64,000 bases of DNA from Patescibacteria group bacterium (GCA_041665365.1 JBAYIY010000004.1:8610-72609); one strand, 5' to 3'. Numbered from the stretch's first letter, positions 6,001 through 63,755 are shown. Notes: generated by a model not told the origin, from the sequence alone. Translations and numbers: made by a program.

Positions 6001-6672
6001 GCCACGACTGATGTAGTCACGGCTATTTTAGATGGTTTCAAATTTAATCGTAATGAGACATTATCAACCGATTGTGCCTTAGAAAAAGCTAAATTAGTCA
6101 TCGATACCAACCGGGTGACCGACTTAGGTACGATCGCTTATTTATTAAGTAGTTATTATTATCATGATAGTGACGGTAATGGTGTAAATGATTTTCCAGA
6201 TTTAACCAGTGGTTCATATATTACCGGTTTAACCACGTCAGTTTGGCCATCTTGGGATGCAGTGTTAGGCGATGCGCTGGGGCAGACGTTGTTTACGGAT
6301 CCGGTTAATACTTTTGCCGATGCAACCACACAGTGCCCATACGCGCCGGACGATAATAAATACTATGATGCCTCTGGCTCATGTTGGGATCCGGTAAACA
6401 AAAAATTCTTCGGGCCAACTGATTCTCATGTTTATCTTTATGAATATCAATCGGCTGATCAATTTGCTTTATATTCCAAGCTAGATTATACCGGTTTAGG
6501 TAGTTGGGGACAGAGTTACTCGTATGATCCATGCACGACATATTCTGATGGTACCACAGCTGTGTCTACTAAAATCAGTGGTTTTTCCGGAGGGTGTTCG
6601 ACCTTTAACTACCTGGTCAATAATACATTGACGACAGATAATACCCTGTATGCCAAACTCTTTGCCGATTGA
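1..6672 (+). CDS. Giant secreted/cell-surface protein (over 2214 aa). The reading frame is open from base 1, so the gene is probably 5'-truncated by the window edge. It is Thr/Ser/Asp/Gly/Cys-rich with repeated IPT/TIG-like modules and many CxxxC pairs.
   Basis: The track ORF 28..6672 is in frame with bases 1-27 with no stop. Repeated '...GQ(Y/P)(I/V)TI(R/Q)G.HFG...' segments resemble IPT/TIG domains. The composition is extreme in Cys and Thr. No TM segment is seen in the part covered. Confidence 0.6.
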   Translation, partial: KVTVPSDGSVVDGSYAFSEDKTAAVFYPASDYQADTTYKVELTSAIEGINPDTGAVYNLSSSDSKRIFTFSTGTTTDDIPPTVNVAELAPFPADGDVDICLNPTLQVSFSESLDPASPSDNNFWLFKAADVVADTLDIGNIRLTSIGGESDDTIVTSPQDQLDSNTEYGISLYSGDPATDQFTGAIYDTCGNPLSGNFDVLMTGSPTDDYIDSAATTYPWTFTTGDQPYCVPNIDSVSQEDSYYSEDQAPIGTSGDEDTGVTTLTGDYLYPFYDVNFNDNISAAGINCFDTGHDTTLGCFVSHTGSSSISLRLPVASQTGVVSVENNNGADDSPQVAVVASPYLRSTSPATGPVGQYITIRGKHFGDYDPAVSGSERGQVWFGDVAGEFVCADGWDDTSIIVRVPVGLNVDDTPTIQVITAAGKYSNQLSFTVTDGTPGPGLCELVPKCSDTGADSVTALGENFGDDGAVYFQSSSGEVNIGTVTSWNVYNETYLSQTVVTDGTPVTALDTYSFSVGSTGISNSLDFKISCAEPPSLFESYSCDLSAGTYYLPNPTSSSDNACVNSVIDFAFTTTMDDTAVESGVAIYKCNNTEPFDDTTCTPITGEYISGFLDSAYGAGSTASEYSFTPSGGFSAGYYYKVTIPSSVTDSTGVGLDSDYAWNFKVRDDTSACKVDSLSVSPATERVTGYDAVDACLDNHNYKDTSYSLRARPATADCLMLDAVGDYTWDISEPAILTFGSNSTTGSDVVGSSLTHTTTNGYDTVCLQGAGETNDGLSTVSASIEGVSDSADIEVDFGYCTQDSDCYTADCRDTYCDATTSHCAPDVIGFTPATVGAGGCLTLNGCYFGSDQTQSGYCTCTSLKADGETCTIDEGDVACLLSGGISSCTLNEEYCELGSTCTTESAEANYDLGYFRGCDCIMTDGTSRTCRVEDGATQCVVAGSETCSATSSTFTAGGAGSISFGSTTASTPASTYCGDVWNTDQVVVQVPEDGSVTPGTYDVTLQSYYGLSDTIEGCAVGSDPTACLCRIEPARGQEGTIADLFGDHFDLFTTNRRVTFAGSISRVQTDGTETWTSANEINNSIVPEGAVSSSEGVQLEDDTSTSNALNFNVSCSSDFDCATGCCNAGQCAAAEQCNICTTDSDCSSSACTSTCVASTCAPVITKLSPDHGAVGQPVTIQGCHFGSYYDPASSTPGSTVTMDGIQAELACSETQEWSNRQIIVTAPDGIFTDATTDLASVQVQQVSTVNAELIAQTSNAVDFTMDNSCSEVDLPVLCNANPVYSPVANDVTLTGENFRAEADGYCACTTSLGDCKITAGDTSCTLTESNTYYVNPTDTSEVCANGSSGPATSNANTFYDATVGACVYTDTTDTTITCQITTGSASCVVTNSDTCYADRIDTSLKCSKDVTGFVSLDGSAQYYSDQAAIIDWTTYSSTKYDTTVPSDSETGDVNVISTTQNNTQCVSNGLEFPISCASCGECNSTADHALNCDLTYDAAFGSCTTSSTGFCRAQPDSCCNVSSCIYDDTATTAVDGGTCVGQPVVAFTDPVMAVQPGDTNICANVQLHVKFSEGMTTSAATDTSDNFDKYIFLRPSSADDTASDETVLSTITPTKTGSELTLDLTKLLDYDTDYELIIRSQDTIVSGTKHQSGVISATTGAAIGCDATMSALGVCHDGYIKYTFTTASAADYSTQCGPASVVLEADSSDFIDHDYTFNESGQTEDITATTYSGDSQAISRIDDGTEPGFSWSYDWTPTYTTLADLEADICPIAGIIGASTDVPNQTLTADTPDAEGEHTDTVKVSITGDGSVEQGWNNSFTDSLLYDFQYCDPDKLVTYSNSDYNLYWSYCQGDMAEFDEVFSRDSAKITEEYGHTEDFIYEIGFKDTAATTNDATTNNNLIVLRVYPNDIDGSPASPWDSINPDLWYMLNTNNPSATATPTTVNGYDAVTVGNTVYVAANNLDDHDDSIEVEGEEEEDLNYGTLSSYMFVVAYSADASSATTDVVTAILDGFKFNRNETLSTDCALEKAKLVIDTNRVTDLGTIAYLLSSYYYHDSDGNGVNDFPDLTSGSYITGLTTSVWPSWDAVLGDALGQTLFTDPVNTFADATTQCPYAPDDNKYYDASGSCWDPVNKKFFGPTDSHVYLYEYQSADQFALYSKLDYTGLGSWGQSYSYDPCTTYSDGTTAVSTKISGFSGGCSTFNYLVNNTLTTDNTLYAKLFAD

Positions 6673-7254: not shown

Positions 7255-8433
7255 ATGGATTTTCCACAACCACCCCAAGGCGCAGCTACTCCATTTCCAG
7301 CCGCGCCACAACCCACTCCTACTACACCACCGTCTTTTCCGGCCACTCCACCAACCTCACCATTGCCCGCCCCATCATTTCCACCACAACCTGTGCAAAT
7401 TCCAGTGCAAGGGGTAAGCGACGAGCAGGTTTATGCTATGCCAGAAAAATTTTTATCGACTAATCCGGCCGGTAGCAGCCCGAGTAGTGAAAAACCGCCG
7501 CGAAAAAAACTGACCATTGTGTTAATTGTGCTAATAATATTAATGGTGCTCGCTACGATTGGTGGAGTAGCCTATTATTTCTTAGTATTGGCTAAAGCTC
7601 CAGTCACAACCACTACATCAACCACTTCTTCCAAAACAACTTCTACTAGTACTACTAACACAAGTAACAATAATGTTAATGCTGTGAATGCCAGCAATGC
7701 AAACAGTAACACGAATAAAATTAATAGTAATGTCAGTAATGTTAATAATGCCAACACTAATAGTAATACAAATTCAAATACCAATGCTGTTGTTAACACA
7801 AATACCAACGTTAATACTAATGTAAATGCTCCGGTAAATACCAACACGAATATTAGTGTCCCGGCCAAAGACACTGACGGTGATGGTTTAACCAATGACG
7901 AAGAAAAAATTTGGGGAACTAAAGCCGATTTACCTGATACGGATGGTGATGGTTATAAAGACGGTGTTGAAGTAGTCGCCGGTTATGATCCAACTAATGC
8001 TACGAGTGCTGGTAAAATATCTGATAATGCAGCTTTAGTCGATACTTATACAAATAGTATGTATAGTTACACTGTGTTACATCCAAACAAGTGGATTGCC
8101 GATGCCTTAACGGAGGGTGATAATACTGAAATATTATTTACGCCAAATACCCTTGAATTAGCGGGACAGTTCGTGGCGATTAGTGTCACTAGTAATCCAT
8201 CTGGGTTAACTGCCTTAGATTGGTACGTTGAAACCAACAAAGTAGCCGAAACTAGTGTAAAACCGGTGACAACATTTTCCGGTTTAAAGGGTGTCTGGAG
8301 TGCTGACGGTAGTACCGCTTACTTTGTTGATAATGATTATGTCTATGCTGTCAGTTATCGTTATGGCACCAGTGCTGAATTGTTCTTCCCTGATACCTTT
8401 CAGTTAATGGTGAAAAGCTTTTCCTTGAATTAA
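7255..8433 (+). CDS. Paralog of the preceding gene: Pro-rich N-terminus, one TM, a long N/T/S/V low-complexity tract, two TSP3-like Ca-binding repeats, and a C-terminal globular domain.
   Basis: 'DTDGDGLTNDEE' and 'DTDGDGYKDGVE'. TM 'IVLIVLIILMVLATIGGVAYYFLVL'. NTN/NSN repeats. Confidence 0.55.
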   Translation: MDFPQPPQGAATPFPAAPQPTPTTPPSFPATPPTSPLPAPSFPPQPVQIPVQGVSDEQVYAMPEKFLSTNPAGSSPSSEKPPRKKLTIVLIVLIILMVLATIGGVAYYFLVLAKAPVTTTTSTTSSKTTSTSTTNTSNNNVNAVNASNANSNTNKINSNVSNVNNANTNSNTNSNTNAVVNTNTNVNTNVNAPVNTNTNISVPAKDTDGDGLTNDEEKIWGTKADLPDTDGDGYKDGVEVVAGYDPTNATSAGKISDNAALVDTYTNSMYSYTVLHPNKWIADALTEGDNTEILFTPNTLELAGQFVAISVTSNPSGLTALDWYVETNKVAETSVKPVTTFSGLKGVWSADGSTAYFVDNDYVYAVSYRYGTSAELFFPDTFQLMVKSFSLN

Positions 8434-10580: not shown

Positions 10581-11735
10581 ATGGCTAATGGTAAATATGT
10601 AGAAGTTAAACCTGATGTAGAAACATTCGCAAAGATTCTTGTGGTGGGCGTTGGTGGCTCCGGTGGCTCTGCCGTTTCCCGCATGATTGACAGTGGTTTA
10701 AAAGGGGTTGAATTTGTCGCTATTAACACCGATGCCCAGGCTTTACACCATAATCCAGCTAAGAACAAAATCCATATTGGTAAGAGTACAACTCGCGGTT
10801 TAGGTGCCGGTATGGATCCTGCCATTGGAGCGAAAGCCGCTGAAGAAACTAATGAAGAATTAACCGCCATGCTCAAGGGAGCGGATATGGTGTTTGTGAC
10901 CTGTGGTTTAGGTGGTGGTACTGGGTCTGGGGCTGGTCCTATTATTGCTCGTTTAGCGCGTGATGCCGGTGCGTTAACAGTAGCCGTTGTAACCAAACCA
11001 TTTCAATTTGAAGGAGCGCAACGTAACCAAATTGCCGATGCCGCTTATAATGAAATGGCCGATGCGGTGGATACAATTATCACCATTCCAAATGATCGCT
11101 TGTTACAAATTATTGATAAGAAAACATCTTTACTTGATGCCTTTAAAACTGTCGACAATGTTTTATTTCAAGGTGTGCAAGGAATCTCTGATTTGATTAC
11201 TGTACCAGGTTTAATTAACGTTGACTTTGCTGATGTAAAATCGGTTATGGCCAACGCCGGTTCGGCCTTGATGGGGATCGGTAAAGCCACGGGTGAGAAT
11301 CGAGCTGTAGAGGCAGCTAAATCAGCCGTTGATAGTCCATTATTAGAATTGAGTATTGATGGAGCTAAGGGTATCTTGTTTACCATCACTGGTGGACCAA
11401 ATTTGAGTATGTACGAAGTCAATGAAGCCGCTCGGGTGATTACTGAATCGGCTGATCCATCCGCCAAGATTATTTTTGGATCCAATGTTGATGAATCTTT
11501 AGGTGATGAAGTTAAAGTAACGGTCGTAGCGACTGGTTTTGGTCAACCAGCCAAAGCCGCCAAAAAAATTCAAGCTGTGCGCCAAACGCCATTTAGCAAA
11601 CGCGAAGATAAAGATATGCCCGTTGCAACCAGTAATACTTTCCGCAACAAAAATATCATGGACGAAGCTCCCGTAGATAATTCCTCCGATGAAGATTTAG
11701 AGGTACCGGCCTTCATTCGGAAGAAGATGATGTAA
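10581..11735 (+). CDS. ftsZ: Cell division GTPase FtsZ
   Basis: Tubulin signature 'GGGTGSGAGPIIA'. 'VVGVGGSGGSAVSRM'. Confidence 0.95.
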   Translation: MANGKYVEVKPDVETFAKILVVGVGGSGGSAVSRMIDSGLKGVEFVAINTDAQALHHNPAKNKIHIGKSTTRGLGAGMDPAIGAKAAEETNEELTAMLKGADMVFVTCGLGGGTGSGAGPIIARLARDAGALTVAVVTKPFQFEGAQRNQIADAAYNEMADAVDTIITIPNDRLLQIIDKKTSLLDAFKTVDNVLFQGVQGISDLITVPGLINVDFADVKSVMANAGSALMGIGKATGENRAVEAAKSAVDSPLLELSIDGAKGILFTITGGPNLSMYEVNEAARVITESADPSAKIIFGSNVDESLGDEVKVTVVATGFGQPAKAAKKIQAVRQTPFSKREDKDMPVATSNTFRNKNIMDEAPVDNSSDEDLEVPAFIRKKMM

Positions 11736-11752
11736 GGAACAACAATTAACAT

Positions 11753-11794
11753 AAAACTGGTAGAGACATGCCATGGCATGTCTCTACCAGTTTT
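11753..11794 (+). terminator. 42-nt perfect palindrome (aaaactggtagagacatgcc|atgg|catgtctctaccagtttt) after ftsZ. It is flanked by an A-tract and a T-tract, so it can act as a bidirectional intrinsic terminator. It belongs to the GTAGAGAC palindrome family.
   Basis: Reverse-complement identity checked base by base. T4 follows on the + strand and A4 precedes. Confidence 0.7.
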
Positions 11795-11860
11795 ATGTGT
11801 GTCAATATGTTTTTTATTATGGTTTATTTATGGCAGATGATCTATACTAACTGACGAACT

Positions 11861-39215: not shown

Positions 39216-40394
39216 ATGCGTAAAGTCTTCACATCTGAGTCAGTCACCGAGGGTCATCCCGATAAAATGGCTGATCAAATTTCCGATGCGGTGCTCGATG
39301 CCATTTTAGCCCTTGATCCAAAGGGGCGAGTGGCTTGCGAAACTTATTTAACCAATGGTGTGTGTTTGGTGGGTGGAGAGGTAACTACCTCTGCCAAGAT
39401 TGATGTCCCAAACTTAGTGCGCGCCGTCATTAAAGATATTGGTTATGCCAAATCCGATTATGGGTTTCATTGGGAAACGTCTGGTTTGATGGTAACAATA
39501 AAAGAGCAATCGCCTGACATTGCCATGGGTGTGGATAGTATTAAAGACCAACAAGAAGATCTGGCTAATTTAGGGGCAGGTGACCAAGGCCTGATGTTTG
39601 GTTATGCCTGTAATGAAACGAAAGAATTAATGCCATTACCAATTGTTTTGGCGCATAAATTAGCCAAACGCTTAGCAGAAGTGCGCAAAAAAAATATTAT
39701 TAAAGGTTTGCGCCCAGATGGTAAAAGTCAGGTTACGGTAGAATATGACGAAAATGATCAACCGGTGCGGGTTCGGTCAGTGTTAATTTCAGCACAGCAT
39801 AATCCAGAATTATCGGTTAAAAAACTCAAGCCGCAGATTATTAAACAGGTAATCAAAGCAGTTATTCCAAAAAACTTGTTAGATAAAGATACGCTATATT
39901 ATGTTAATCCAACTGGTCGATTTGTGATTGGTGGGCCACAAGGCGATACTGGTTTAACCGGCCGCAAGATTATTGTGGATACCTATGGTGGTTATGCCCG
40001 CCATGGTGGCGGTGCTTTTTCTGGCAAAGATCCCAGTAAAGTTGATCGCACCGGCAGTTACGCCGCGCGCTGGATTGCAAAAAATATTGTGGCGGCTAAA
40101 TTAGCCTCACGCGCTGAAGTGCAAGTAGCCTATGCCATCGGTATGGCCGAACCGTTATCGGTGCGCGTTGATACGTTTGGTACCGGCGTAGTTGGAGACG
40201 ATATTCTAGCTGACGCTGTACAACAAGTGTTTGATTTACGTCCCGGCATGATTATTAAAGCACTAAATTTACGTCAGCCAATTTATAAACAAACCGCGGC
40301 CTATGGTCATTTTGGTCGAAACGATTTAAAACTACCTTGGGAACAAACCAATCGTATTATCCAACTTAAACAAGCCGTGAAGAAATTACAATAA
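39216..40394 (+). CDS. metK: S-adenosylmethionine synthetase
   Basis: '[25 protein letters not shown]', '[23 protein letters not shown]'. Confidence 0.95.
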
Positions 40395-41359
40395 TGTCGG
40401 TTATCGTGTCAGGCTCAATTGCGTTCGATCGCATCATGGATTTTCCTGGAAAATTTTCTGACCATATTCTGCCTAATAAAATTCATAATCTCAATGTCAG
40501 TTTTGGTCTAGATAAATTATCCATCGAGTTTGGTGGTACCGCCGGTAATATCGCTTATACACTATCATTATTTGGAGAAAAACCCAGTATTGTTGGTAGT
40601 GTCGGTCATGATTTTGCTCCCTACAAAAAGCATCTTATCAAACACCATATCAATCTTCGGGACATTCGTGTAATTCCAAAAGAAACCTGTGCCACCGCTC
40701 ACATTATTACCGACCAAGGTGATAATCAAATAGCTGGTTTTCATTTCGGTGCCATTAGTTATCCGGCCGTGTCAGCACAGATCGTAACAAAACAAACCAA
40801 ATTAGGTATTATAGCGGCTGGTAATCTTGCTGATATGATGAAACTATCCGAGCAATATCGCCATAATCATGTTCCGTTTATTGTCGATCCAGGACAACAA
40901 CTTACCTGGCTAACCGGAGCACAATTAACCTATTTATTAAATGGTGCTCACACCTTGGTGGTAAATGATTATGAACTGGCTGTGGTTCAAAAAAAATTAA
41001 TGTCTGTAGAGACACGCCATGGCGTGTCTCTACAGAATAAATCGTCTCTACAAAATTTGACCCAATTGGTTGTCACCAAAGGTGAAAAAGGCGCCGATTG
41101 GTTTGTGGGTGGAAAACGCTATGTTTTGCCGGTGGCTAAACCCACCCGGGTATTAGATCCAACCGGGGCAGGTGATGCCTACCGCAGTGGCATAATTCTT
41201 GGTATACTCCGCCAGTGGTCACCCGAGCAAGCTGGTCGTGTGGCCGCTTTATGTGCGACGTATGCCATCGAACAATACGGCACACAAAACCACACGTTTA
41301 CAAAAACACAATTTAAAAAACGCTATTATAAAAATTTTAAACATAATATAATTATTTAA
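40394..41359 (+). CDS. PfkB-family carbohydrate/nucleoside kinase, likely adenosine kinase given the metK/ahcY context
   Basis: 'NDYE' (NxxE motif). 'DPTGAGDAYRSG' anion-hole motif. Confidence 0.7.
   Translation: MSVIVSGSIAFDRIMDFPGKFSDHILPNKIHNLNVSFGLDKLSIEFGGTAGNIAYTLSLFGEKPSIVGSVGHDFAPYKKHLIKHHINLRDIRVIPKETCATAHIITDQGDNQIAGFHFGAISYPAVSAQIVTKQTKLGIIAAGNLADMMKLSEQYRHNHVPFIVDPGQQLTWLTGAQLTYLLNGAHTLVVNDYELAVVQKKLMSVETRHGVSLQNKSSLQNLTQLVVTKGEKGADWFVGGKRYVLPVAKPTRVLDPTGAGDAYRSGIILGILRQWSPEQAGRVAALCATYAIEQYGTQNHTFTKTQFKKRYYKNFKHNIII
41003..41036. repeat. 34-nt perfect palindrome (tctgtagagacacgcc|atgg|cgtgtctctacaga) inside the adoK coding sequence, in frame (encodes SVETRHGVSLQ). A duplicated half-arm 'cgtctctaca' follows at 41044-41053.
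   Basis: Exact reverse-complement symmetry verified. Same arm family as 11753-11794. Confidence 0.75.
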
Positions 41360-41365
41360 TCGATA

Positions 41366-41396
41366 GGTAGAGACGTGCCGCCGGCACGTTTCTACC
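41366..41396. repeat. Imperfect palindrome ggtagagacgtgcc-gccggc-ggcacgtttctacc between adoK and ahcY
   Basis: One mismatch in the 14-bp arms. Family core GTAGAGACG. Confidence 0.6.
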
Positions 41397-54764: not shown

Positions 54765-55714
54765 AAATATTTATCACCCGCCCGATTCCCGGTAGTGCTC
54801 TCAACATCATCAATACATTGGGGACAGTAAAATTAAGAAACAAAGATAGTGTGATTTCACGTCGTGAGCTTGAAGCCGGCGTGAAAGATTGTGATATTCT
54901 CGTACCTATCCTCACCGATAAAATTGATGATGCCTTATTATCTCAAGCACCCCGTTTAAAATTGATCGCCAATTATGGCGCTGGGTATAATAATATTGAT
55001 ATCGTGGCAGCTAAGAAACATGGTGTGGCTGTGACTAATACACCCGGTGTCCTCACAGAAACAACCGCCGAACTGACAGTGGCCTTAATGTTGGCAGTGT
55101 CTCGCCGCTTGGTAGAAACTGATGGCATTATGCGGGCAGGTAAGTATCCGGGTTGGGGACCAATGATGTATTTAGGACACGGCATTTCTGGTAAGACATT
55201 AGGTGTGATTGGCATGGGTCGAGTTGGTACCCGTGTGGCTGAAATTGCGCATCACGGTTTTGGTATGCATGTGTTGTATTACACCAAACGAAAAGAGCGG
55301 GAAGTAGAATTATCATTGGGGGCAAAAAAAGTTAGTTTAAATACACTCTTAAAAAAATCCGACGTGGTGTCTTTACATGTCCCGTTATTGCCCAATACGC
55401 AACATTTGATCGGTAAAAAACAGTTAGCCCTAATGAAATCATCAGCGTATTTAATAAACACGTCACGTGGTCCCGTAGTAGATGAAGTGGCTTTAGTACA
55501 AGCCTTAAAATCGAAACAGATCGCTGGTGCTGGTTTGGATGTTTATGAAAAAGAACCAGCTATGGTACCCGGTTTAGCCAAATTATCTAACGCTGTTTTA
55601 TTACCGCATATCGGTTCGGCCACCATTGATACCCGCACTGCTATGGCCATGGTAGTAGCAAAAAATATTAAGGCGTTTGTCCGTGGAAAAAAATTACCCA
55701 ATCAAGTTGCTTAA
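54761..55714 (+). CDS. D-isomer-specific 2-hydroxyacid dehydrogenase (hydroxypyruvate/glyoxylate reductase or PGDH-like)
   Basis: 'GVIGMGRVG' NAD Rossmann motif. Catalytic 'R...E...H' arrangement typical of 2-Hacid_dh. Confidence 0.8.
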   Translation: MKIFITRPIPGSALNIINTLGTVKLRNKDSVISRRELEAGVKDCDILVPILTDKIDDALLSQAPRLKLIANYGAGYNNIDIVAAKKHGVAVTNTPGVLTETTAELTVALMLAVSRRLVETDGIMRAGKYPGWGPMMYLGHGISGKTLGVIGMGRVGTRVAEIAHHGFGMHVLYYTKRKEREVELSLGAKKVSLNTLLKKSDVVSLHVPLLPNTQHLIGKKQLALMKSSAYLINTSRGPVVDEVALVQALKSKQIAGAGLDVYEKEPAMVPGLAKLSNAVLLPHIGSATIDTRTAMAMVVAKNIKAFVRGKKLPNQVA

Positions 55715-56939
55715 ACAGTTAGCTCAAGCAACTTTACGAGCTTTGCAGCCTGAGCAAATGGTTAAGGTTAATTTACCAAAATTAGGTGTTTATAAACATA
55801 TTTATGTCATTGGTGCCGGTAAGGCCACTTTTGGCATGGCGGTACAAATTAATAAAATGCTCGGCAAAAAGATTACCGCCGGTTATATAAATGTACCAGG
55901 CAATAGCCAACAGGCAATAGGGAAAATTATTGTACAGACGGGGTCACATCCGTTTCCAGATCAAAATACAGTACAAGCTAGTAACAATATATTGAAATTA
56001 GTACGATCTGCTGGAAAAAATGATTTAGTAATTGGCTTGTGGAGTGGGGGAGGGTCGAGTTTGTTTACTATTCCGCGGGCAGGTATCACTTTGCCACAAC
56101 AAGTTGAACTCACTAAAAAATTAATGAGAGCCGGGGCGGATATTATTGAGTTGAACACTGTGCGTAAACATATTTCACAGGTTAAAGGTGGGCAATTAGC
56201 CGCAGTGTGTTCTGCAGCGATGTTGAATTTGATTATTTCTGACGTGATTGGTGACCCGCTAGATGTTATCGCCTCAGGCCCTACCGTGGCGGATGCATCT
56301 ACCACTAAACAAGCCAGGCAAATTCTAAAAAAATATCATATCTATAATAAACCGTTAGAAAAAATTATCTTATTAGAAACTCCTAAAAAGATAAATTCAA
56401 AAAAAGTAAAGAATATCCTAATCGGTTCAAATAAAATTGCTTTAAATTATTTAGTTAAACTAGCCAAACAGAAACAGATCACACCGGTTATTATAACCGA
56501 TCGTTTATCTGGAGAAGCTAGAATTGTAGCTAAGAGATTGTGTCGTTATGCTAAAAAGATTCAAGCTATTAAACAGTTACCGGTTTTATTATTAGCCGGT
56601 GGTGAAACTACAGTGACGGTAAAAGGCAACGGTTATGGTGGGCGTAATCAAGAATTAGTATTGGCGGCTTTACCGCATTTGGCACCCGGTATCAGCCTAT
56701 TATCATTGGCCACCGACGGGGTTGATGGTTTTACACCTAAACCGGTCGCTGCCGCCTTTGGGACGTTTATTGGTGGTAAAGACGCGATTAATCGCGTCTT
56801 TACCACCAATAAATTTTTGGATAATCACGATTCCTATACAATCTTAAACAAATTGCACCAATTATTGTTTACCGGACCAACTGGTACCAATGTGGGGGAT
56901 ATCGTGCTGTTGTTGGTTGAAAAACCCCCAGTCCTGTGA
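55677..56939 (+). CDS. Glycerate 2-kinase (MOFRL family)
   Basis: 'LVIGLWSGGGSSLF' and 'LLAGGETTVTVKGNGYGGRNQE' are MOFRL/GckA hallmarks. Confidence 0.7.
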   Translation: MSVEKNYPIKLLKQLAQATLRALQPEQMVKVNLPKLGVYKHIYVIGAGKATFGMAVQINKMLGKKITAGYINVPGNSQQAIGKIIVQTGSHPFPDQNTVQASNNILKLVRSAGKNDLVIGLWSGGGSSLFTIPRAGITLPQQVELTKKLMRAGADIIELNTVRKHISQVKGGQLAAVCSAAMLNLIISDVIGDPLDVIASGPTVADASTTKQARQILKKYHIYNKPLEKIILLETPKKINSKKVKNILIGSNKIALNYLVKLAKQKQITPVIITDRLSGEARIVAKRLCRYAKKIQAIKQLPVLLLAGGETTVTVKGNGYGGRNQELVLAALPHLAPGISLLSLATDGVDGFTPKPVAAAFGTFIGGKDAINRVFTTNKFLDNHDSYTILNKLHQLLFTGPTGTNVGDIVLLLVEKPPVL

Positions 56940-58897: not shown

Positions 58898-59665
58898 ATG
58901 TTACCGAATTTACATTGGGCAACGATTACGCTTGGACCAATCGTGATTCAAGTGTGGGGTTTGTTTGTGGCACTTGGTATTATCGTAGCGGTATTGGTCG
59001 TTAAACAGTTTGCTAAACAGCGGCAATTAAATGACACCGCCGTAGTGGACGCCAGTTTTTGGATAATGGTGGCGGCCATGTTGATGGGTCGAGTGTGGTT
59101 TGTGTTTGATGAATGGTCTTTATTTAGCGGACATGTGTTAGATGCTTTAAAAATTTGGGAAGGAGGGATGTCAATCAGCGGTGGTTTCTTTGGGGCTTTA
59201 GTAGCCGGAGTGATTTATTTTAAATATAAAAAATTACCGTTTCTACCTTATGCGGAAGTAATGGTGTACGCTTTACCGTTAGGTATTGCCATCGGCCGGT
59301 TGGGTTGTTTCTTTATTTTTGACCATCCCGGAACGGTGACAAATTTCTTCTTAGGTGAGGTTTATTTTGTGGATGGCCTCGTGCGCCATAATCATGGGTT
59401 ATATCTAGTGATAGATGGAGCAGTGTTATTTAGTTTATTTACTTATCTACGGTACAAAACCAAAGCCTTACCACCATATTTTGTGACGATATTTTTACTG
59501 TGGGAAGGTTTGGTGCGAATTATTTTAGACAATTGGCGCATCGCCGATAACCACTGGTACGGCTTTACCGCCGCCCAATGGTGGGGAGTTGTGATGGTAT
59601 TAGGTGGTTTAACTGTGTTTGGCACGAGGCAGATTATAAGGAAGAAATACACACACGTCCTGTAG
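58898..59665 (+). CDS. lgt: Probable prolipoprotein diacylglyceryl transferase (Lgt-like polytopic membrane protein)
   Basis: Seven TM segments. 'GIAIGRLGCFFIFDHPG' resembles the Lgt GR.GNF region. The stop codon TAG lies inside the following palindrome. Confidence 0.45.
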   Translation: MLPNLHWATITLGPIVIQVWGLFVALGIIVAVLVVKQFAKQRQLNDTAVVDASFWIMVAAMLMGRVWFVFDEWSLFSGHVLDALKIWEGGMSISGGFFGALVAGVIYFKYKKLPFLPYAEVMVYALPLGIAIGRLGCFFIFDHPGTVTNFFLGEVYFVDGLVRHNHGLYLVIDGAVLFSLFTYLRYKTKALPPYFVTIFLLWEGLVRIILDNWRIADNHWYGFTAAQWWGVVMVLGGLTVFGTRQIIRKKYTHVL

Positions 59666-59694
59666 AGACGCGATTAATCGCGTCTCTACAGGAC
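59657..59694. repeat. 38-nt perfect palindrome gtcctgtagagacgcgattaatcgcgtctctacaggac
   Basis: Verified self-complementary. Overlaps the lgt stop codon. Confidence 0.8.
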
Positions 59695-59727
59695 AGGGCA
59701 TTGTAATTCCGCCGGTTTTTGTTGGGT

Positions 59728-59756
59728 TTGACAAAACTCAAAAAATGTGATAATGT
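59728..59756 (+). promoter_or_regulatory. Sigma70-like promoter (TTGACA-17-TAATGT with an upstream TGTG) in the AT-rich spacer between the two palindromes. No obvious ORF lies downstream.
   Basis: Read directly. Confidence 0.3.
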
Positions 59757-59922
59757 GTTCTGTTTTTGAGGCGCTTTTTTGTGCCTTAAAAACAAGCTAT
59801 TTGTCACGGTTTTTCGAGTCCTTTGACAATTTATCAATGTAAAGAATTAAAAAAACCATATATTTCTGTTTGGTTTGAAATATACGGTGCAGGTAGATCG
59901 AAATGAATAACCGAACCATCCC

Positions 59923-59976
59923 ACCCCCTGTCCTGGTAGAGACGCGATTAATCGCGTCTCTACCAGGACAGGGGGT
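59923..59976. repeat. 54-nt perfect palindrome (acccccctgtcctggtagagacgcgattaatcgcgtctctaccaggacagggggt), a longer copy of the 59657 element
   Basis: Verified base by base. Confidence 0.8.
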
Positions 59977-60095
59977 ACCGGGACGTCGGTTATTAATCTC
60001 GGTCTATCTGTGAGCCTTATCCAGGGGACGGTTGGGGCAATGATGCTCTGATCACACTGGGTGGGGTTTGGTCACAAAAACCGAAAGGAGAGGCC

Positions 60096-61835
60096 ATGAC
60101 CGGCTTCTTTTCTGATCTGAATGACGTCATGGAAAACCTCCTGTCCGGGCTGTCGGCCCGGCTGGTGGCTATCCTCGGGTTTTTGCTCGCCGTGCTCGGG
60201 GGTGGGGGCGCGTTCGCGTTCCTCGGTCCCGAAAACGAGTGGGTGACCCCCCTGTTCGGGGCGGGGGCGACGTTGGTCGTCCTCTCCCTGTTTGTGCGGG
60301 GGAGGCACGGGAATATCGGGGTGGAAGCCCCGGTTCCTGTGCAGGTTGTTCTCTGGGGACTGGCGATGTTTTTGTTGTGCCACGTCCCTATTGATAGGTC
60401 GGTCTGGATCTACCCCTGGATGCAGGGGGCGACCGTCCTGATCGTGGCACTCGGACTCGCCACGATCTTCATCCTCTCACCCGGGAGGGCGTTCCCGTCA
60501 GGGTCGTTCTTCTGGGGAGTGCTCTGTGCCTGGGGCGCAAGCCTCTTGCACTGGGGGCTCGTGGGGATGAAATGGGCGGCGACCGAGATCGCCCCGCAGG
60601 GTCCCATCGCCCAGGCCTCAGTGGCCGTGGCGTGGGTACTCGGCACCGTCTGCCTGATTGTGGCAACGGTGGCGTGGGCGATCATCCAGACCCACCGGTG
60701 GTCCAAGCGGGACCAGGTGTTCTTCCGCTTGGACAGGCCGGGAAAGTTCAAGGCCGTGCGCACGGGGCCCACGGTCTACACCTTCGTCGGGGATCTCACG
60801 GGTGTCCCCCCGGCGAAGGAGTCGGTACCAAGCGACGTTCTCTCCCAAGGGCCACAGGCGGTCTGGGAGTGGATGTGTGCGTGGCGGCCGACCCCCGCAT
60901 TGGTGGCACACGGAGCCCACCATGCGGATCCAACCATCCTGGACAATCCCAGGATGGATCCACGCCCGTTCCTCAACGACGCCCAGTGGATTCTCCCTGG
61001 TGCGTTCTTTGGGGGAGTTCCGGGGTTCGCCATCCCGGAACTGATGGTGGCAGAGATCTTCAATCGGAACCATGGCAACGGCGGCAACGGACACGCTGCC
61101 GGCGGTCATGGTGATCACAAGCAGCCCGACGCCCCGCGCCCCGGGGAGTACGGGACCTTGCAGGTCATTCCGGATGTGGACATGATCGTTGGGTTCGTGC
61201 CCACGAGCATGGCCGGTCCGGAAATCCGGCTGAAGATCGGCGTGTCCCTGCGGGCCGTCGGTCTGCCTTATCTTTTCCACGTGGACTCGCTGGATCACCA
61301 GCTTGAACACGCGGCGGAGATTCTCGGGCAGGCCCTCGCCGGTTCGGTGGGGACGTGGCTGTATGGCTTGACGGGGCACCTCTACGAGTTCGCTCGTCGT
61401 GGTGCTCCGCGTCGTCCTCGTACCCCGCTCGCCCCGGGGGATGAGCCCATCTCGGACATCCCGGCCGAGGTGGGGAATCACTTGGACCACTTCGTGCACC
61501 ACATGCACGAAGTTGGTATCCACGTTATTGAGTTGCGGCTCAAGGACGTGGATCTGCCGGACAACATCCGGCAGGTGAGTGATGAGAGGCTCACGGTCTT
61601 CATCCAGCAGACCGTGGCCAAGGCTAAGGCCGACATTCTCCGCCAGACTCGAATGGCGGAAATGGAAGCCTTCCTTGACACCGCCAAACTCTCTGACGAA
61701 AAGGTCAGAGGTGACGTGGTCAAGGAGCTGGCGAAGTTTTACTTCATTCAGGGGACGGATATGGCCGCCCTGCTTGGAGTAGCTTCCGCTGTCGGGTTCG
61801 CGCCCGGTATCGGTGGTGGCAAGAAGTCCACCTAG
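60096..61835 (+). CDS. High-GC (about 65%) foreign gene: polytopic N-terminal membrane domain, a His/Gly-rich linker, and a C-terminal SPFH/band-7 (flotillin/stomatin-like) domain
   Basis: GC3-rich codons throughout. SD 'aaaggagagg' upstream. 'IHVIELRLKDVDLPDNIRQV...AKAKADILRQTRMAEMEAFLDTAK' resembles the SPFH core. Linker 'NRNHGNGGNGHAAGGHGDH'. Confidence 0.6.
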   Translation: MTGFFSDLNDVMENLLSGLSARLVAILGFLLAVLGGGGAFAFLGPENEWVTPLFGAGATLVVLSLFVRGRHGNIGVEAPVPVQVVLWGLAMFLLCHVPIDRSVWIYPWMQGATVLIVALGLATIFILSPGRAFPSGSFFWGVLCAWGASLLHWGLVGMKWAATEIAPQGPIAQASVAVAWVLGTVCLIVATVAWAIIQTHRWSKRDQVFFRLDRPGKFKAVRTGPTVYTFVGDLTGVPPAKESVPSDVLSQGPQAVWEWMCAWRPTPALVAHGAHHADPTILDNPRMDPRPFLNDAQWILPGAFFGGVPGFAIPELMVAEIFNRNHGNGGNGHAAGGHGDHKQPDAPRPGEYGTLQVIPDVDMIVGFVPTSMAGPEIRLKIGVSLRAVGLPYLFHVDSLDHQLEHAAEILGQALAGSVGTWLYGLTGHLYEFARRGAPRRPRTPLAPGDEPISDIPAEVGNHLDHFVHHMHEVGIHVIELRLKDVDLPDNIRQVSDERLTVFIQQTVAKAKADILRQTRMAEMEAFLDTAKLSDEKVRGDVVKELAKFYFIQGTDMAALLGVASAVGFAPGIGGGKKST

Positions 61836-61962
61836 CCAGCCCGAGCCATTAGCGTGTGGCTCGTAAAAGATATCACGCCAGTTTCTCGTCGGTTTGAGCC
61901 ATAGTCATTACTGTGGTTCGCCGACATTCGTGTTTCAACAAACAACAATTCAAACAACAAAT

Positions 61963-61993
61963 TGTAGAGACGTCCCGCCGGGACGTCTCTACA
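61963..61993. repeat. Palindrome tgtagagacgtcccg-c-cgggacgtctctaca between the two high-GC genes
   Basis: 15-bp arms, verified. Confidence 0.75.
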
Positions 61994-62003
61994 GGGAGAT
62001 TTC

Positions 62004-62792
62004 ATGAGTCTCACTACGGCTCTTGCGATTCTGGTTCCGTTCTTGATGACTATTATCGGGGTCGCGATCGTGCGCTCAATTATGTACAGTGGAACTGACG
62101 ACCCCGCCGCCCACGCCGGTGGGAAGGAGGAGGCTCATCACGAGCCCTTCCTCCCCAACTGGCTCACCCTGGGGTACCACCCCAAGGTGTGGGTCGCGGC
62201 CGCCGCGCTCGTGGCGGTCGTCTGGCTCGGGCCGTGGGTGTGGGAGTGGGGATACGGGACCCCACTCGCCGACCCAGAGGTGGTCGAGCGACTCCAGTGG
62301 CCAGGCACCGTCCTGGCAATCCTGGTGGTGTTGATCATCAACGCCGCCAGGAAAAAGTACCCGGATGCCCACTCCCACGGGCCGGAGGACGCGGATGTCC
62401 TCTTCATGCTCGTGGTCACCGCCGTCATGGTGCTGATGGCGACCGGGGGCATCGGGTTCCTCCACCTGTTGGGGAACAACTGGGTGAAGGTCGGGGATAC
62501 CTGTTGGCGGCTGTATCACTGCCCCGCCAGCTGGATCCTGATCTTCCTCTTTCCCCACATGGGTGAGAGGTCGTTTGGGAAGGGAACCGGGCCGGCCACC
62601 GTGTCGACGGTGATCGTGGTCGGCCTGTGGGCGTTCTTCGTCGGACCGTACGTGTCCGACGGATGGAACGCAGTGTGGTTCGACCACATGGTGCTGCACG
62701 CCATGGGGTTGAATCACGCGTGGGAAATGCCAGACTGGTTCCTCTGGCTTTTCCCGGTTGACGATCACCTGCCACCGGAGTGGCGCTGGTGA
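62004..62792 (+). CDS. High-GC foreign gene: hypothetical polytopic membrane protein (262 aa), Trp/His-rich
   Basis: Six or more hydrophobic helices. GC3-rich. SD 'agggag'. The alternative-frame ORFs in this stretch are treated as GC artefacts. Confidence 0.55.
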   Translation: MSLTTALAILVPFLMTIIGVAIVRSIMYSGTDDPAAHAGGKEEAHHEPFLPNWLTLGYHPKVWVAAAALVAVVWLGPWVWEWGYGTPLADPEVVERLQWPGTVLAILVVLIINAARKKYPDAHSHGPEDADVLFMLVVTAVMVLMATGGIGFLHLLGNNWVKVGDTCWRLYHCPASWILIFLFPHMGERSFGKGTGPATVSTVIVVGLWAFFVGPYVSDGWNAVWFDHMVLHAMGLNHAWEMPDWFLWLFPVDDHLPPEWRW

Positions 62793-62895
62793 TCAAAGAG
62801 TAGTAAGGCTCGATTTGGATAGGTGTGGTAGGCTTGACGCGTTGTCGTCGCCGCCACCCATACATCCATCTCGAGCCTTTTTTCGTATACAAAAT

Positions 62896-62955
62896 AACTG
62901 TACCAACACAGGTAGAGACGCGATTAATCGCGTCTCTACCTGTGTTGGTACAGTT
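62896..62955. repeat. 60-nt perfect palindrome aactgtaccaacacaggtagagacgcgattaatcgcgtctctacctgtgttggtacagtt
   Basis: 27-bp arms, verified. Core identical to 59923-59976. Confidence 0.8.
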
Positions 62956-63040
62956 CAATTTGACAACAACAAAAAAATACCTTATTATCACCAGCATAAA
63001 GCGTTGCCAAAGTGATTGGGGACGCTTTTATTATCAGATT

Positions 63041-63718
63041 ATGAAAAACAACAAGCAGATTATTAAACAAAACACCTTTTCGAAGTTTTTATTATACACT
63101 ACGCCAAATGGCAAAGTTAAGGTGGAGATATTTTTGCATGATGAGAATATCTGGCTGACACAAATGAAGATAGCCAAGTTATTCGGAGTAGAAAGAAGTG
63201 TTATTACTAAGCATCTACAAAATATATTTAAGGAGGGTGAGCTTAATAAAGTAGCAACCTGTGCAAAAATTGCACAGGTTCAAAATGAAGGCAAAAGACA
63301 AGTAACAAGGGATGTTGAGTTTTATAATTTAGATGCGATTATATCTGTTGGATACAGAGTAAACAGTGTCATGGCCACTAATTTTAGAATTTGGGCGACT
63401 GAACGTCTCAAAGAATATATCATCAAGGGTTTTACCATGGACGATGAACGATTAAAAAACCCAAATACTATTTTTGGTCAAGATTATTTTGAAGAACAAC
63501 TGGCTCGCATCAGAGATATTAGAAGTAGTGAAAGACGATTTAATGAAAGGAATATTTTAGAAGACAATGGAAAAATTAGTCATGAAGTAGCAGTAGTTTC
63601 TGCAGAAAGCGAATACGAAAAATATCGTAAAAAACAAGACAAAAATTATATATCTGATTTTGATCGAGCAGCGAAGAAACTTATGAACAATAAATTTAAT
63701 AACAAAAATAACAGGTAA
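63041..63718 (+). CDS. rhuM: RhuM-family protein (virulence/phage-associated DNA-binding family), low GC
   Basis: 'GKVKVEIFLHDENIWLTQMKIAKLFGVERSVITKHLQNIFKEGEL' and 'ATNFRIWATERLKEYIIKGF' match RhuM conserved blocks. Start set at the ATG at 63041 downstream of the palindrome. Confidence 0.65.
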   Translation: MKNNKQIIKQNTFSKFLLYTTPNGKVKVEIFLHDENIWLTQMKIAKLFGVERSVITKHLQNIFKEGELNKVATCAKIAQVQNEGKRQVTRDVEFYNLDAIISVGYRVNSVMATNFRIWATERLKEYIIKGFTMDDERLKNPNTIFGQDYFEEQLARIRDIRSSERRFNERNILEDNGKISHEVAVVSAESEYEKYRKKQDKNYISDFDRAAKKLMNNKFNNKNNR

Positions 63719-63727
63719 GAACACCCG

Positions 63728-63755
63728 GTAGAGACGTTGTATGCAACGTCTCTAC
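63728..63755. repeat. Palindrome gtagagacgttg-tatg-caacgtctctac after rhuM
   Basis: 12-bp arms, verified. Confidence 0.7.

Follow-up and report, generated by a model that had tools for sequence, protein, structure and literature searches.

How two GC-rich genes for membrane proteins came to lie in an AT-rich bacterial genome, each set off from its neighbours by palindromes of one family, is the question raised by a 64,000-nucleotide stretch of DNA from Patescibacteria group bacterium (GCA_041665365.1, JBAYIY010000004.1:8610-72609; henceforth the window, with positions counted from its first letter). An initial annotation had read the arrangement as an array of independently acquired cassettes delimited by a conserved hairpin, possibly an undescribed capture mechanism, with genes that might have come from an actinobacterial-type host. 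We show here, by structure and by association with transposase genes, that the palindromes are double-foot repetitive extragenic palindromes (REPs) of the kind that goes with subclass 2.4 of the RAYTs (tyrosine transposases that are associated with REPs, also called TnpA_REP), which are HUH-Y1 enzymes, the assignment being one of sequence comparison. The two GC-rich genes are a single conserved module, and we think it likely that REPs of this type and an exchanged GC-rich operon are two unrelated things that happen to overlap at this locus. Its features are the following, with strands given for the genes and other directional elements; the palindromes carry none.

58898–59665, + strand: lgt (prolipoprotein diacylglyceryl transferase; Pfam LGT, 1.5e-39), the conserved left neighbour of the module
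59657–59694: REP-1, a 38-nt perfect palindrome of the double-foot type with the core GTAGAGACGCGATTAATCGCGTCTCTAC
59923–59976: REP-2, perfect over 54 nt and sharing the 28-nt core of REP-1, at the point where the composition changes on the left
59977–60095, + strand: GC-rich leader (~0.54 GC); contains CTCGGTCTATCTG, a conserved start motif, and the Shine-Dalgarno sequence GGAGAGG
60096–61835, + strand: GC-rich gene 1, encoding a 579-aa membrane protein with ~6 N-terminal transmembrane helices, a divergent SPFH-like domain and a long helix, as predicted
61963–61993: REP-3, a 31-nt palindrome with a 1-nt centre and the upper stem GTCCCG/CGGGAC
62004–62792, + strand: GC-rich gene 2, encoding a 262-aa polytopic Trp/His-rich membrane protein, the putative partner of gene 1
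62896–62955: REP-4, perfect over 60 nt, its 28-nt core identical to that of REP-1 and REP-2, at the point where the composition changes on the right
62960–62988, + strand: promoter-like site (TTGACA-17-TATTAT, by 11 of 12 consensus matches only) upstream of the rhuM-like gene
63041–63718, + strand: rhuM-like gene of 32% GC, encoding the candidate defence protein PDC-S05 (Pfam RhuM, PADLOC)
63728–63755: REP-5, a 28-nt hairpin of two 12-nt arms and a 4-nt loop, with the upper stem GTTG/CAAC

Structure, placement and class of the palindromes

All five palindromes around the GC-rich genes proved to be where the initial annotation had placed them, four of them perfect (38, 54, 31 and 60 nt) and the fifth, at 63728–63755, a hairpin of 28 nt. 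They belong to a family with nine copies in the window, all of which begin with GTAG or GTAA, end with CTAC or TTAC and have stems of 12–30 bp, and the half-site GTAGAGACG occurs 12 times where 0.17 occurrences are expected. Four of the nine copies lie away from the GC-rich island, one of them followed by a half copy.

11749–11798: a 50-nt perfect palindrome with a GTAGAGACATGCCATGGCATGTCTCTAC core, 14 nt past the stop of the open reading frame (ORF) 10581–11735
41003–41036: a REP in frame within ORF 40394–41359, encoding VETRHGVSLQ
41043–41051: a half copy after the in-frame REP at 41003–41036
41366–41396: a REP 7 nt past the stop of ORF 40394–41359
56766–56813: a variant, GTAAAGACG…CGTCTTTAC, with a compensatory change in the foot, in frame in the MOFRL/glycerate-kinase-like ORF 55677–56939

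Seven of the nine copies are extragenic, and four of these overlap a stop codon or lie no more than 14 nt past one. The TAG stop of lgt is itself part of the GTAG foot of REP-1, REP-5 lies 10 nt past the stop codon of the rhuM-like gene, and REP-3 abuts the Shine-Dalgarno sequence of gene 2, while REP-2 and REP-4, at the two composition boundaries, share an identical 30-nt core. The proposal that the palindromes mark the edges in composition held in part: they are enriched at the island, since 6.8% of the window holds five of the nine copies (p = 1.4e-4), and 23% of the intergenic bases hold five of the seven extragenic ones (p = 0.009), but they are not confined to it, and no change of composition is seen near the copy at 11749–11798.

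A pattern scan for GTAGAGACG-N10-11-CGTCTCTAC, conducted with one genome per species, returned at least 120 loci compared to ~17 by chance (an estimated expectation). The matches listed span Bacteroidota, Cyanobacteria (Nostoc, Calothrix and others), Chloroflexota, Rhodothermales, Acidobacteriota, Omnitrophota, Patescibacteria and more, and their host genomes, as listed, range from 31 to 74% GC. The 9-bp foot is constant, and the upper stem varies between copies yet stays self-complementary: at least four further base pairs form in this variable part in 79% of 130 copies as opposed to 0.4% by chance, which amounts to covariation. At a Bacteroidales locus with four copies (L006), the hairpins stand 6–10 nt past the stops of ordinary genes (DUF2147, an S4-domain protein, PrsW, an M3 peptidase and MscL). 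Common to many phyla, the foot GTAGAGACG provides a practical marker for REPs of RAYT subclass 2.4 in metagenomes.

The association with an enzyme family emerged from tblastn searches in which two Y1-transposase-like fragments adjoining relatives of the island served as queries. A RAYT-like gene is flanked by two REPs in L024 and lies beside the hairpin in L052 and L102, and in L023, L079, L110 and L124 (here twice) the hairpin sits in frame inside the RAYT-like gene, at a point preceded by HuH (MPNH[ILF]H) and followed by the C-terminal motifs WQ…Y…YIxNNP. One RAYT-like protein of L124 scores 30.2 bits with Pfam Y1_Tnp (cut-off 23) and matches NCBIfam REP_Tyr_transpos, the REP-associated tyrosine transposase, at 2.8e-15. 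Subclass 2.4 of TnpA_REP/RAYT, which is RAYT group 4, is defined by the motifs NH[IFV]H, WQ and YIxNNP and by double-foot REPs with 5' GT[AG]G and 3' C[TC]AC, is unique in having REPs inserted in frame within the tnpA_REP gene, and is plentiful among Cyanobacteria and Bacteroidetes as well as present in scattered phyla (Quentin et al., 2018, BMC Genomics 19:475, PMC6006769). By motif comparison, the hairpin-adjacent enzymes carry this set, some of them together with a REP between HuH and Y: L024 has NHFH, EWQ and YIFNNP; L124b has NHIH, RWQ and YIRDNP with an internal REP; and L110 and L079 have NHLH and YI[IR]NNP with an internal REP that encodes VETHGRASLQ.

The hairpins themselves match the published double-foot REPs, which fits the earlier guess that an HUH or RAYT-type transposase acts on them. 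Akin to the REPs of subclass 2.4, they carry 5' GT[AG]G and 3' C[TC]AC feet on one long hairpin, fall into several sub-families with different, covarying upper stems, and are spread over Cyanobacteria, Bacteroidetes and scattered phyla. As opposed to those REPs, they reside here in a member of Patescibacteria, a phylum named neither by Quentin et al. (2018) nor by Di Nocera et al. (2013, BMC Genomics 14:522, PMC3733652); no RAYT gene lies in the ~70 kb around them; many copies extend, as perfect palindromes of 38–60 nt, into locus-specific flanks that differ between copies (for example 62896–62955 and 11749–11798); and conservation covers the 9-bp foot, well beyond a tetranucleotide. GTAG REPs that supply TAG stops or lie in frame within ORFs have been documented (Di Nocera et al., 2013), and both habits are present here, in the stop of lgt and in the in-frame copies at 41003 and 56766. 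The elements share with that GTAG-tagged superfamily a short palindrome, a GTAG terminus and a position mostly just downstream of ORFs, as well as a foot that gives TAG stops and some copies in frame within genes; by the definition given there, however, GTAG is a tag that stays unpaired and stands at one hairpin end, whereas here it pairs with CTAC and the element is symmetrical. The REP type is hereby extended to Patescibacteria, including in-frame insertions in housekeeping genes, lgt among them, of genomes that are very small. Rfam gave only sub-threshold matches of the hairpins to microRNA models, and the literal hairpin sequence was found in the literature in unrelated primers only.

Several further observations bear on how the REPs sit in their surroundings. 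The in-frame copy at 56766–56813 encodes FIGGKDAINRVFTTNK and entails no change in length relative to the L130 homologue, and the lgt of L130, a relative, carries a REP at 6563–6590 that forms a 9-residue in-frame insertion (FCRDALQCV) compared to the lgt of the window. REP-2 is the centre of a ~120-nt imperfect palindrome (59890–60010; self-match of 84% over 126 nt), and since the beginning of the leader, which is conserved, falls within the right arm of this palindrome, the left arm resembles an inverted copy of the right flank. Fold-back DNA synthesis, primed by the hairpin once the REP had been nicked, would be expected to give this result. In L138 (1–60 and 2750–2807) the same motif is found inverted on either side of a REP. 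REPs with tandem partial copies of one arm are common in other phyla (L102, L062, L026, L030, L086 and L108), and on the minus strand of L102, at ~5100–5700, a RAYT gene adjoins a long array in which hairpin units are repeated in tandem, translated as YRKDARPCVSTTRLPTARL. Short-read contigs from several public assemblies terminate within REPs (the end of L002, a Logan contig that stops inside REP-1; the starts of L127 and L140; both ends of L138), and the family is a recurrent cause of contig breaks in metagenome assemblies of Patescibacteria.

The GC-rich genes and their relatives

The jump in composition was confirmed by calculation. The genome has a GC content of ~41% and the region from 60.0 to 62.8 kb one of ~63%; the per-kb values at 60–63 kb are 0.64, 0.60 and 0.59, compared to 0.32–0.46 in the remainder of the window, and profiles at 100-nt resolution rise from 0.32 at 59801–59900 to at least 0.53 from 59901 onwards and fall to 0.38 or less past 62900. 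The two ORFs, 60096–61835 (579 aa) and 62004–62792 (262 aa), both have a GC content of 63.2%, with GC at the first, second and third codon positions (GC1, GC2 and GC3) of 0.66, 0.45 and 0.78 in the former and 0.62, 0.44 and 0.84 in the latter. The other 55 genes of the window have a GC3 of 0.348 ± 0.044 (maximum 0.444), against which the two ORFs stand out with z-scores of 9.9 and 11.2. Shine-Dalgarno sequences precede both, and the strong three-base periodicity shows that the annotated frames are truly coding, so that the two are real genes, as first supposed; the same periodicity rules out a non-coding RNA as the source of the GC-rich DNA. Because their codon-position GC fits the equilibrium of a ~65% GC genome (Muto-Osawa and Lawrence-Ochman regressions), they show no signal of amelioration. 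The non-coding parts of the module are raised as well, to 0.49–0.58 GC, and AT-rich spacers and REPs are present within the island, between the two genes.

An exhaustive HMMER search with the 579-aa protein, covering 1.84 billion representatives of 15 billion proteins, yielded ten matches: its own fragment, a 39-residue stretch in a 1903-aa protein and eight genuine relatives (27–39% identity), all from metagenomes. Where the flanks of the relatives are visible, they are AT-rich and resemble those of Patescibacteria. The loci of the relatives are arranged as follows.

L124 (GCA_030698395.1, ~35% GC): lgt, a 519-aa homologue (61% GC, GC3 0.76) and a 180-aa gene (58%, GC3 0.80); after the module, a RAYT-like gene, an NHL-repeat gene and a second RAYT-like gene
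L125 (GCA_054403235.1, ~43% GC): DsbA-like gene, lgt, a 599-aa homologue (62%), a 236-aa gene (61%), a gene for a MopE-motif protein (68%) and a 162-aa gene (58%), then AT-rich housekeeping genes
L126: 2.8 kb only, with no AT-rich flank within it
L127, L138 and L140: contig start in a REP, the conserved leader and a homologue of 60–64% GC; GC of 0.31–0.45 past the module
L136: lgt, a spacer and an island of 64% GC
L137: AT-rich DNA upstream, followed by genes of 55% and 60% GC
L139: DsbA-like gene, a REP whose 28-nt core is identical, a spacer rich in AT, the leader and a homologue (61% GC, GC3 0.85)

In most of nine independently assembled AT-rich Patescibacteria contexts (~35–46% GC), the module has ~60–64% GC and a GC3 of 0.76–0.86. 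It lies beside DsbA or lgt in all five loci with a visible upstream flank, lgt being upstream also in L124, L125 and L136. A small high-GC gene follows gene 1 on the 3' side in L124, L125, L126, L127 and L137, and genes 1 and 2 co-occur as a pair in six genomes. Because the genes pair up across relatives, they are one conserved module, an operon with its own leader that belongs to a very rare family restricted to Patescibacteria, and not two captured cassettes. A REP is found just upstream of the module in five of the ten loci (the window, L127, L138, L139 and L140), and the module borders are free of REPs in L124, L125, L136 and L137. The distribution among relatives is patchy, for in a metagenome scan based on lgt the module was absent from L129 and L130, whose lgt is 58–63% identical; it is present in L124 and L125, whose lgt is 53–54% identical. 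Identity of the module protein between hosts is ~36%, whether lgt is 54% or 68% identical.

Relatives of the leader motif at 59995–60020 of the window occur in L124 (~1505–1530), L127, L138, L139 (~1115–1130) and L140 (~310–420). Upstream of the SPFH-like gene, the leaders of L127 (54–155) and L138 (21–122) are 82% identical over 104 nt, compared to only 41% for the proteins; in the window, L124, L139 and L140 the likeness is weaker. For the start motif that the leaders share, CTCGGYCTRYCTG / TCGATCTGCCTG, pairing with the Shine-Dalgarno region is predicted; Rfam held no match to the leaders of L126, L127, L137 and L138, and the leader may be a new cis-regulatory RNA. Downstream of the module in L124, RAYT-like genes with internal REP-type palindromes, at 4136–4747 and 7305–7853, flank the NHL-repeat gene, the same one as comes after the island in the source genome. 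In L127 a RAYT-like gene likewise stands 3' of the module, from ~3130. RAYT genes usually occur in about one copy per genome, which makes their position next to the module in these two genomes worth noting.

Origin of the module and its relation to the REPs

We favour the interpretation of an accessory module that is exchanged or replaced horizontally, at a locus both conserved and variable, and whose donor pool is not actinobacterial. An exchange from a GC-rich pool is suggested by the foreign, unameliorated composition, the patchiness and the flat identities, and REPs are not needed for the module, since they are absent from its borders in four relatives. We infer both this exchange and the mobility of the REPs through a RAYT in the genome at hand. 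By analogy with characterised REP/RAYT systems, the REPs would form hairpins in single-stranded DNA that a RAYT enzyme would recognise and nick at the GTAG foot; binding and cleavage of the hairpin are established for TnpA_REP of E. coli (Quentin et al., 2018). The REPs would multiply into intergenic DNA, preferentially just past stop codons, would occasionally enter tolerant parts of genes in frame and, where transcribed, could act as 3' hairpins. Here they would have settled in intergenic spacers of unusual length at a variable locus, of a kind missing from the rest of a tightly packed genome, and this would be the simplest reading of their enrichment; the locus may also be, or have been, the neighbourhood of a RAYT gene, where REPs cluster. 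The GC-rich operon, with its own GC-rich leader, would encode a divergent scaffold of the SPFH type and a small polytopic partner. In its fixed position, its very divergent alleles and a composition unlike that of the host genome, the locus would resemble the O-antigen and capsule loci of enterobacteria, which have an atypical GC content between conserved flanks; those loci, however, are AT-rich in their hosts and encode sugar pathways, whereas the present locus is GC-rich although its hosts are AT-rich, and its products are two membrane proteins.

Several results weigh against this interpretation. Neither a donor, a vehicle, an integrase nor an att site was identified: no relative of the module was found in plasmids or phages (tblastn), in IMG/VR or, by pattern scan, in JGI metagenomes; the module borders have no att-like direct repeats or terminal inverted repeats (TIRs) except the REPs themselves; and the precomputed Pfam families of the genes from ~10 kb upstream to ~10 kb downstream of lgt include no integrase. 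The constant position beside DsbA and lgt is easier to reconcile with vertical descent than with repeated import. Neither a RAYT gene nor a remnant of one was detected by tblastn, even at E = 5, in the 64-kb window and the 5.7 kb beyond it, so that RAYT activity on the REPs of this genome is deduced from the relatives L124 and L127, and the enzyme of this genome, if still present, must lie elsewhere than in the ~70 kb examined. Because REPs are enriched at the island and precede the module in half of the ten loci, a functional or mechanistic link between the two is possible, and the assignment to SPFH proteins draws on a model with a confidence score of 64 and on sub-threshold sequence matches (see below).

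The module may instead have been placed beside DsbA and lgt once, in an ancestor of these Patescibacteria, and inherited vertically with losses, its ~63% GC being held in genomes of 35–46% GC by selection on DNA or mRNA, by GC-biased gene conversion at a hot spot or by another regional bias. Such descent would suit the shared position in five of five loci, the conserved leader elements, the lack of att sites, TIRs and an integrase, and the near-constant GC of the module across hosts, non-coding parts included; no genome, plasmid or virus demonstrably of high GC, moreover, was found to carry a member of the family. We nevertheless consider it rather unlikely in view of the patchy distribution among relatives and of a module identity of ~36% that does not track the lgt identity of 54–68%, although saturation could also give the latter pattern. 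The REPs offer no way out, since a rhuM-like gene of only 32% GC lies between two of them, which argues that they do not confer GC-richness, and we know of no mechanism that holds a 3-kb block 20–28 GC points above a bacterial genome over such divergence. The composition of the module contradicts both simple amelioration and simple recent transfer, and its constant position and the failure to find a GC-rich source among 15 billion proteins suggest an old resident with maintained composition. As a tentative and somewhat doubtful proposition, either some mechanism or selection actively keeps the island GC-rich where it stands, or the module is re-imported to its specific site from an unsampled GC-rich pool, with neither an integrase nor an att site recognisable; the REP/RAYT elements at the 5' edge of the module may or may not be involved in the persistence of the island. 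If the GC content is indeed actively maintained or repeatedly re-imported, the module would be a compact test case for the persistence of compositional islands.

The cassette reading holds that each gene was captured independently and that the hairpin is a site of recombination or transposition, for example through RAYT/HUH enzymes that mobilise REP-flanked genes. Every island gene in the window is indeed bracketed by REPs, those at the boundaries have the identical 30-nt core, REPs are enriched at the island and stand just upstream of the module in L127, L138, L139 and L140, and RAYT-like genes adjoin it in L124 and L127. We nonetheless find such capture improbable, and with it the undescribed hairpin-based mechanism that had been proposed: the two genes travel together, paired in six genomes and at one position; the modules of L124, L125, L136 and L137 have no palindromes at the borders; in this window as in other phyla, REPs flank or interrupt housekeeping genes; the nearest ~15 kb hold no RAYT, integrase or recombinase, and there are no target duplications except REPs; and REP/RAYT systems are described without cargo capture (Quentin et al., 2018; Di Nocera et al., 2013). 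When they are members of a REP family, hairpins on both sides of a gene are no evidence of a cassette system, and a false lead is thereby removed. A recent transfer from a high-GC host such as an actinobacterium to its symbiont, the origin put forward in the initial annotation, appears very improbable. The codon-position GC, at the equilibrium of a ~65% GC genome, and the sharp composition boundaries would fit it, but the HMMER search found no homologue beyond ~10 clusters, which lie in AT-rich contexts of the Patescibacteria type, and the same locus in relatives with 36% identical proteins is not expected from independent recent transfers. That foreign GC-rich DNA was joined to the contig at shared palindromic repeats, as an assembly chimera, we regard as hardly credible. 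Identical 28-nt REP cores in unrelated phyla and the breaks of L002, L127, L138 and L140 at REPs would make such joining conceivable, but the junction from lgt through the REP to high-GC DNA recurs in L001 from ENA (a 365-kb contig, 100% identical) and in the JGI metagenome L003 (99.78%), and an NCBI metagenome-assembled genome, "Patescibacteria group bacterium", carries both GC-rich proteins. Because the arrangement is the same in these separate assemblies, the junctions are not an assembly artefact; transitions from AT-rich to GC-rich DNA occur without any repeat in L124, L125 and L136, and AT-rich spacers and REPs lie inside the island.

Same-strand genes in series, separated by hairpin-forming repeats, also recall integron cassettes, but the initial annotation rightly held that the hairpins do not match attC sites. 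They are perfect palindromes with GTAG/CTAC feet, without a GTTRRRY core at the ends and without extrahelical bases; they occur outside the island and inside ORFs too; and no IntI is nearby, the genes having a leader and promoter-like sites of their own. An integron cassette array was rejected accordingly (no integrase family within ~10 kb either side of lgt and no attC features), as was a transposon of the IS200/IS605 type with cargo, there being no Y1 gene in or near the island and the bordering hairpins being identical symmetrical REPs that are found elsewhere too. The window differs from L003 by four single-nucleotide polymorphisms at 60719–60736, at the contig end.

The encoded proteins and the rhuM-like gene

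For the gene 1 protein, AlphaFold reached a predicted local distance difference test score (pLDDT) of 41 with the single sequence and of 64, a medium confidence, with the nine-sequence family alignment, and the latter model has six N-terminal transmembrane helices, a beta-rich domain and a long helix, combining an SPFH alpha/beta fold with a long coiled-coil helix. A fold search with this model placed prohibitin, HflK, flotillin and stomatin on top, in agreement with the SPFH-like character first ascribed to the protein, although sequence did not place it in the family: Pfam Band_7 (PF01145) scored 13.4 bits against a cut-off of 23.6 (E = 0.081), and the other sub-threshold signals were NCBIfam HflC (E = 0.0067, far below cut-off) and a PDB-profile match to stomatin (E = 0.11), the three being independent of one another and agreeing in direction. 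Neither module protein matched PADLOC or PHROGs, and that of gene 2 had no match in Pfam or NCBIfam either, an NfeD domain included; it is weakly homologous to the product of the same-position gene of L125 (BLASTP E = 5e-4). A word-indexed protein search found neither a relative of the 579-aa protein nor that protein itself, and matched the 262-aa protein only to itself, and with the family alignment it returned only the fragment of the 579-aa protein.

By analogy with SPFH-partner operons, gene 1 would encode a divergent membrane scaffold of the SPFH type and gene 2 its small membrane partner, and the predicted function of the module would be that of an SPFH-partner membrane complex. As opposed to known SPFH proteins (stomatin, prohibitin, flotillin, HflK/C) in two-gene operons, such as QmcA-YbbJ (SPFH-NfeD), the gene 1 protein stays below threshold for Band_7, has ~6 N-terminal transmembrane helices and not a single anchor, and has its SPFH-like domain split by a large insertion, while the gene 2 partner lacks an NfeD match. 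Both proteins and their homologues contain His/Gly-rich loops, for example NHGNGGNGHAAGGHGDH and HGGHGHGGHAHGPH, encoded at 61060–61130 (gene 1) and at 62100–62160 and 62370–62400 (gene 2) of the window, and seen also in P0003, P0004 and L125 (4342–5052 and 5354–6067), and one island protein of L125 has a metal-binding motif of the MopE type (PF11617, 3.4e-15). These are hints of a link of the module to metals, possibly copper. What remains of interest is a rare, lineage-restricted SPFH-like module beside genes of envelope biogenesis (DsbA and lgt) in episymbiotic bacteria.

The low-GC gene that follows the island is, as first described, rhuM-like and bounded by palindromes, with REP-4 and REP-5 on either side. 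Its 225-aa protein matches Pfam PF13310 (1.4e-48) and PADLOC PDC-S05 (2e-78), and since the best stretch covers positions 5–156 of the 336 in the PDC-S05 profile, about the first half, the gene may be a truncated copy relative to the profiles. We read this candidate defence gene as a second, low-GC passenger at the same locus. The promoter-like site at 62960–62988 comes directly after REP-4.

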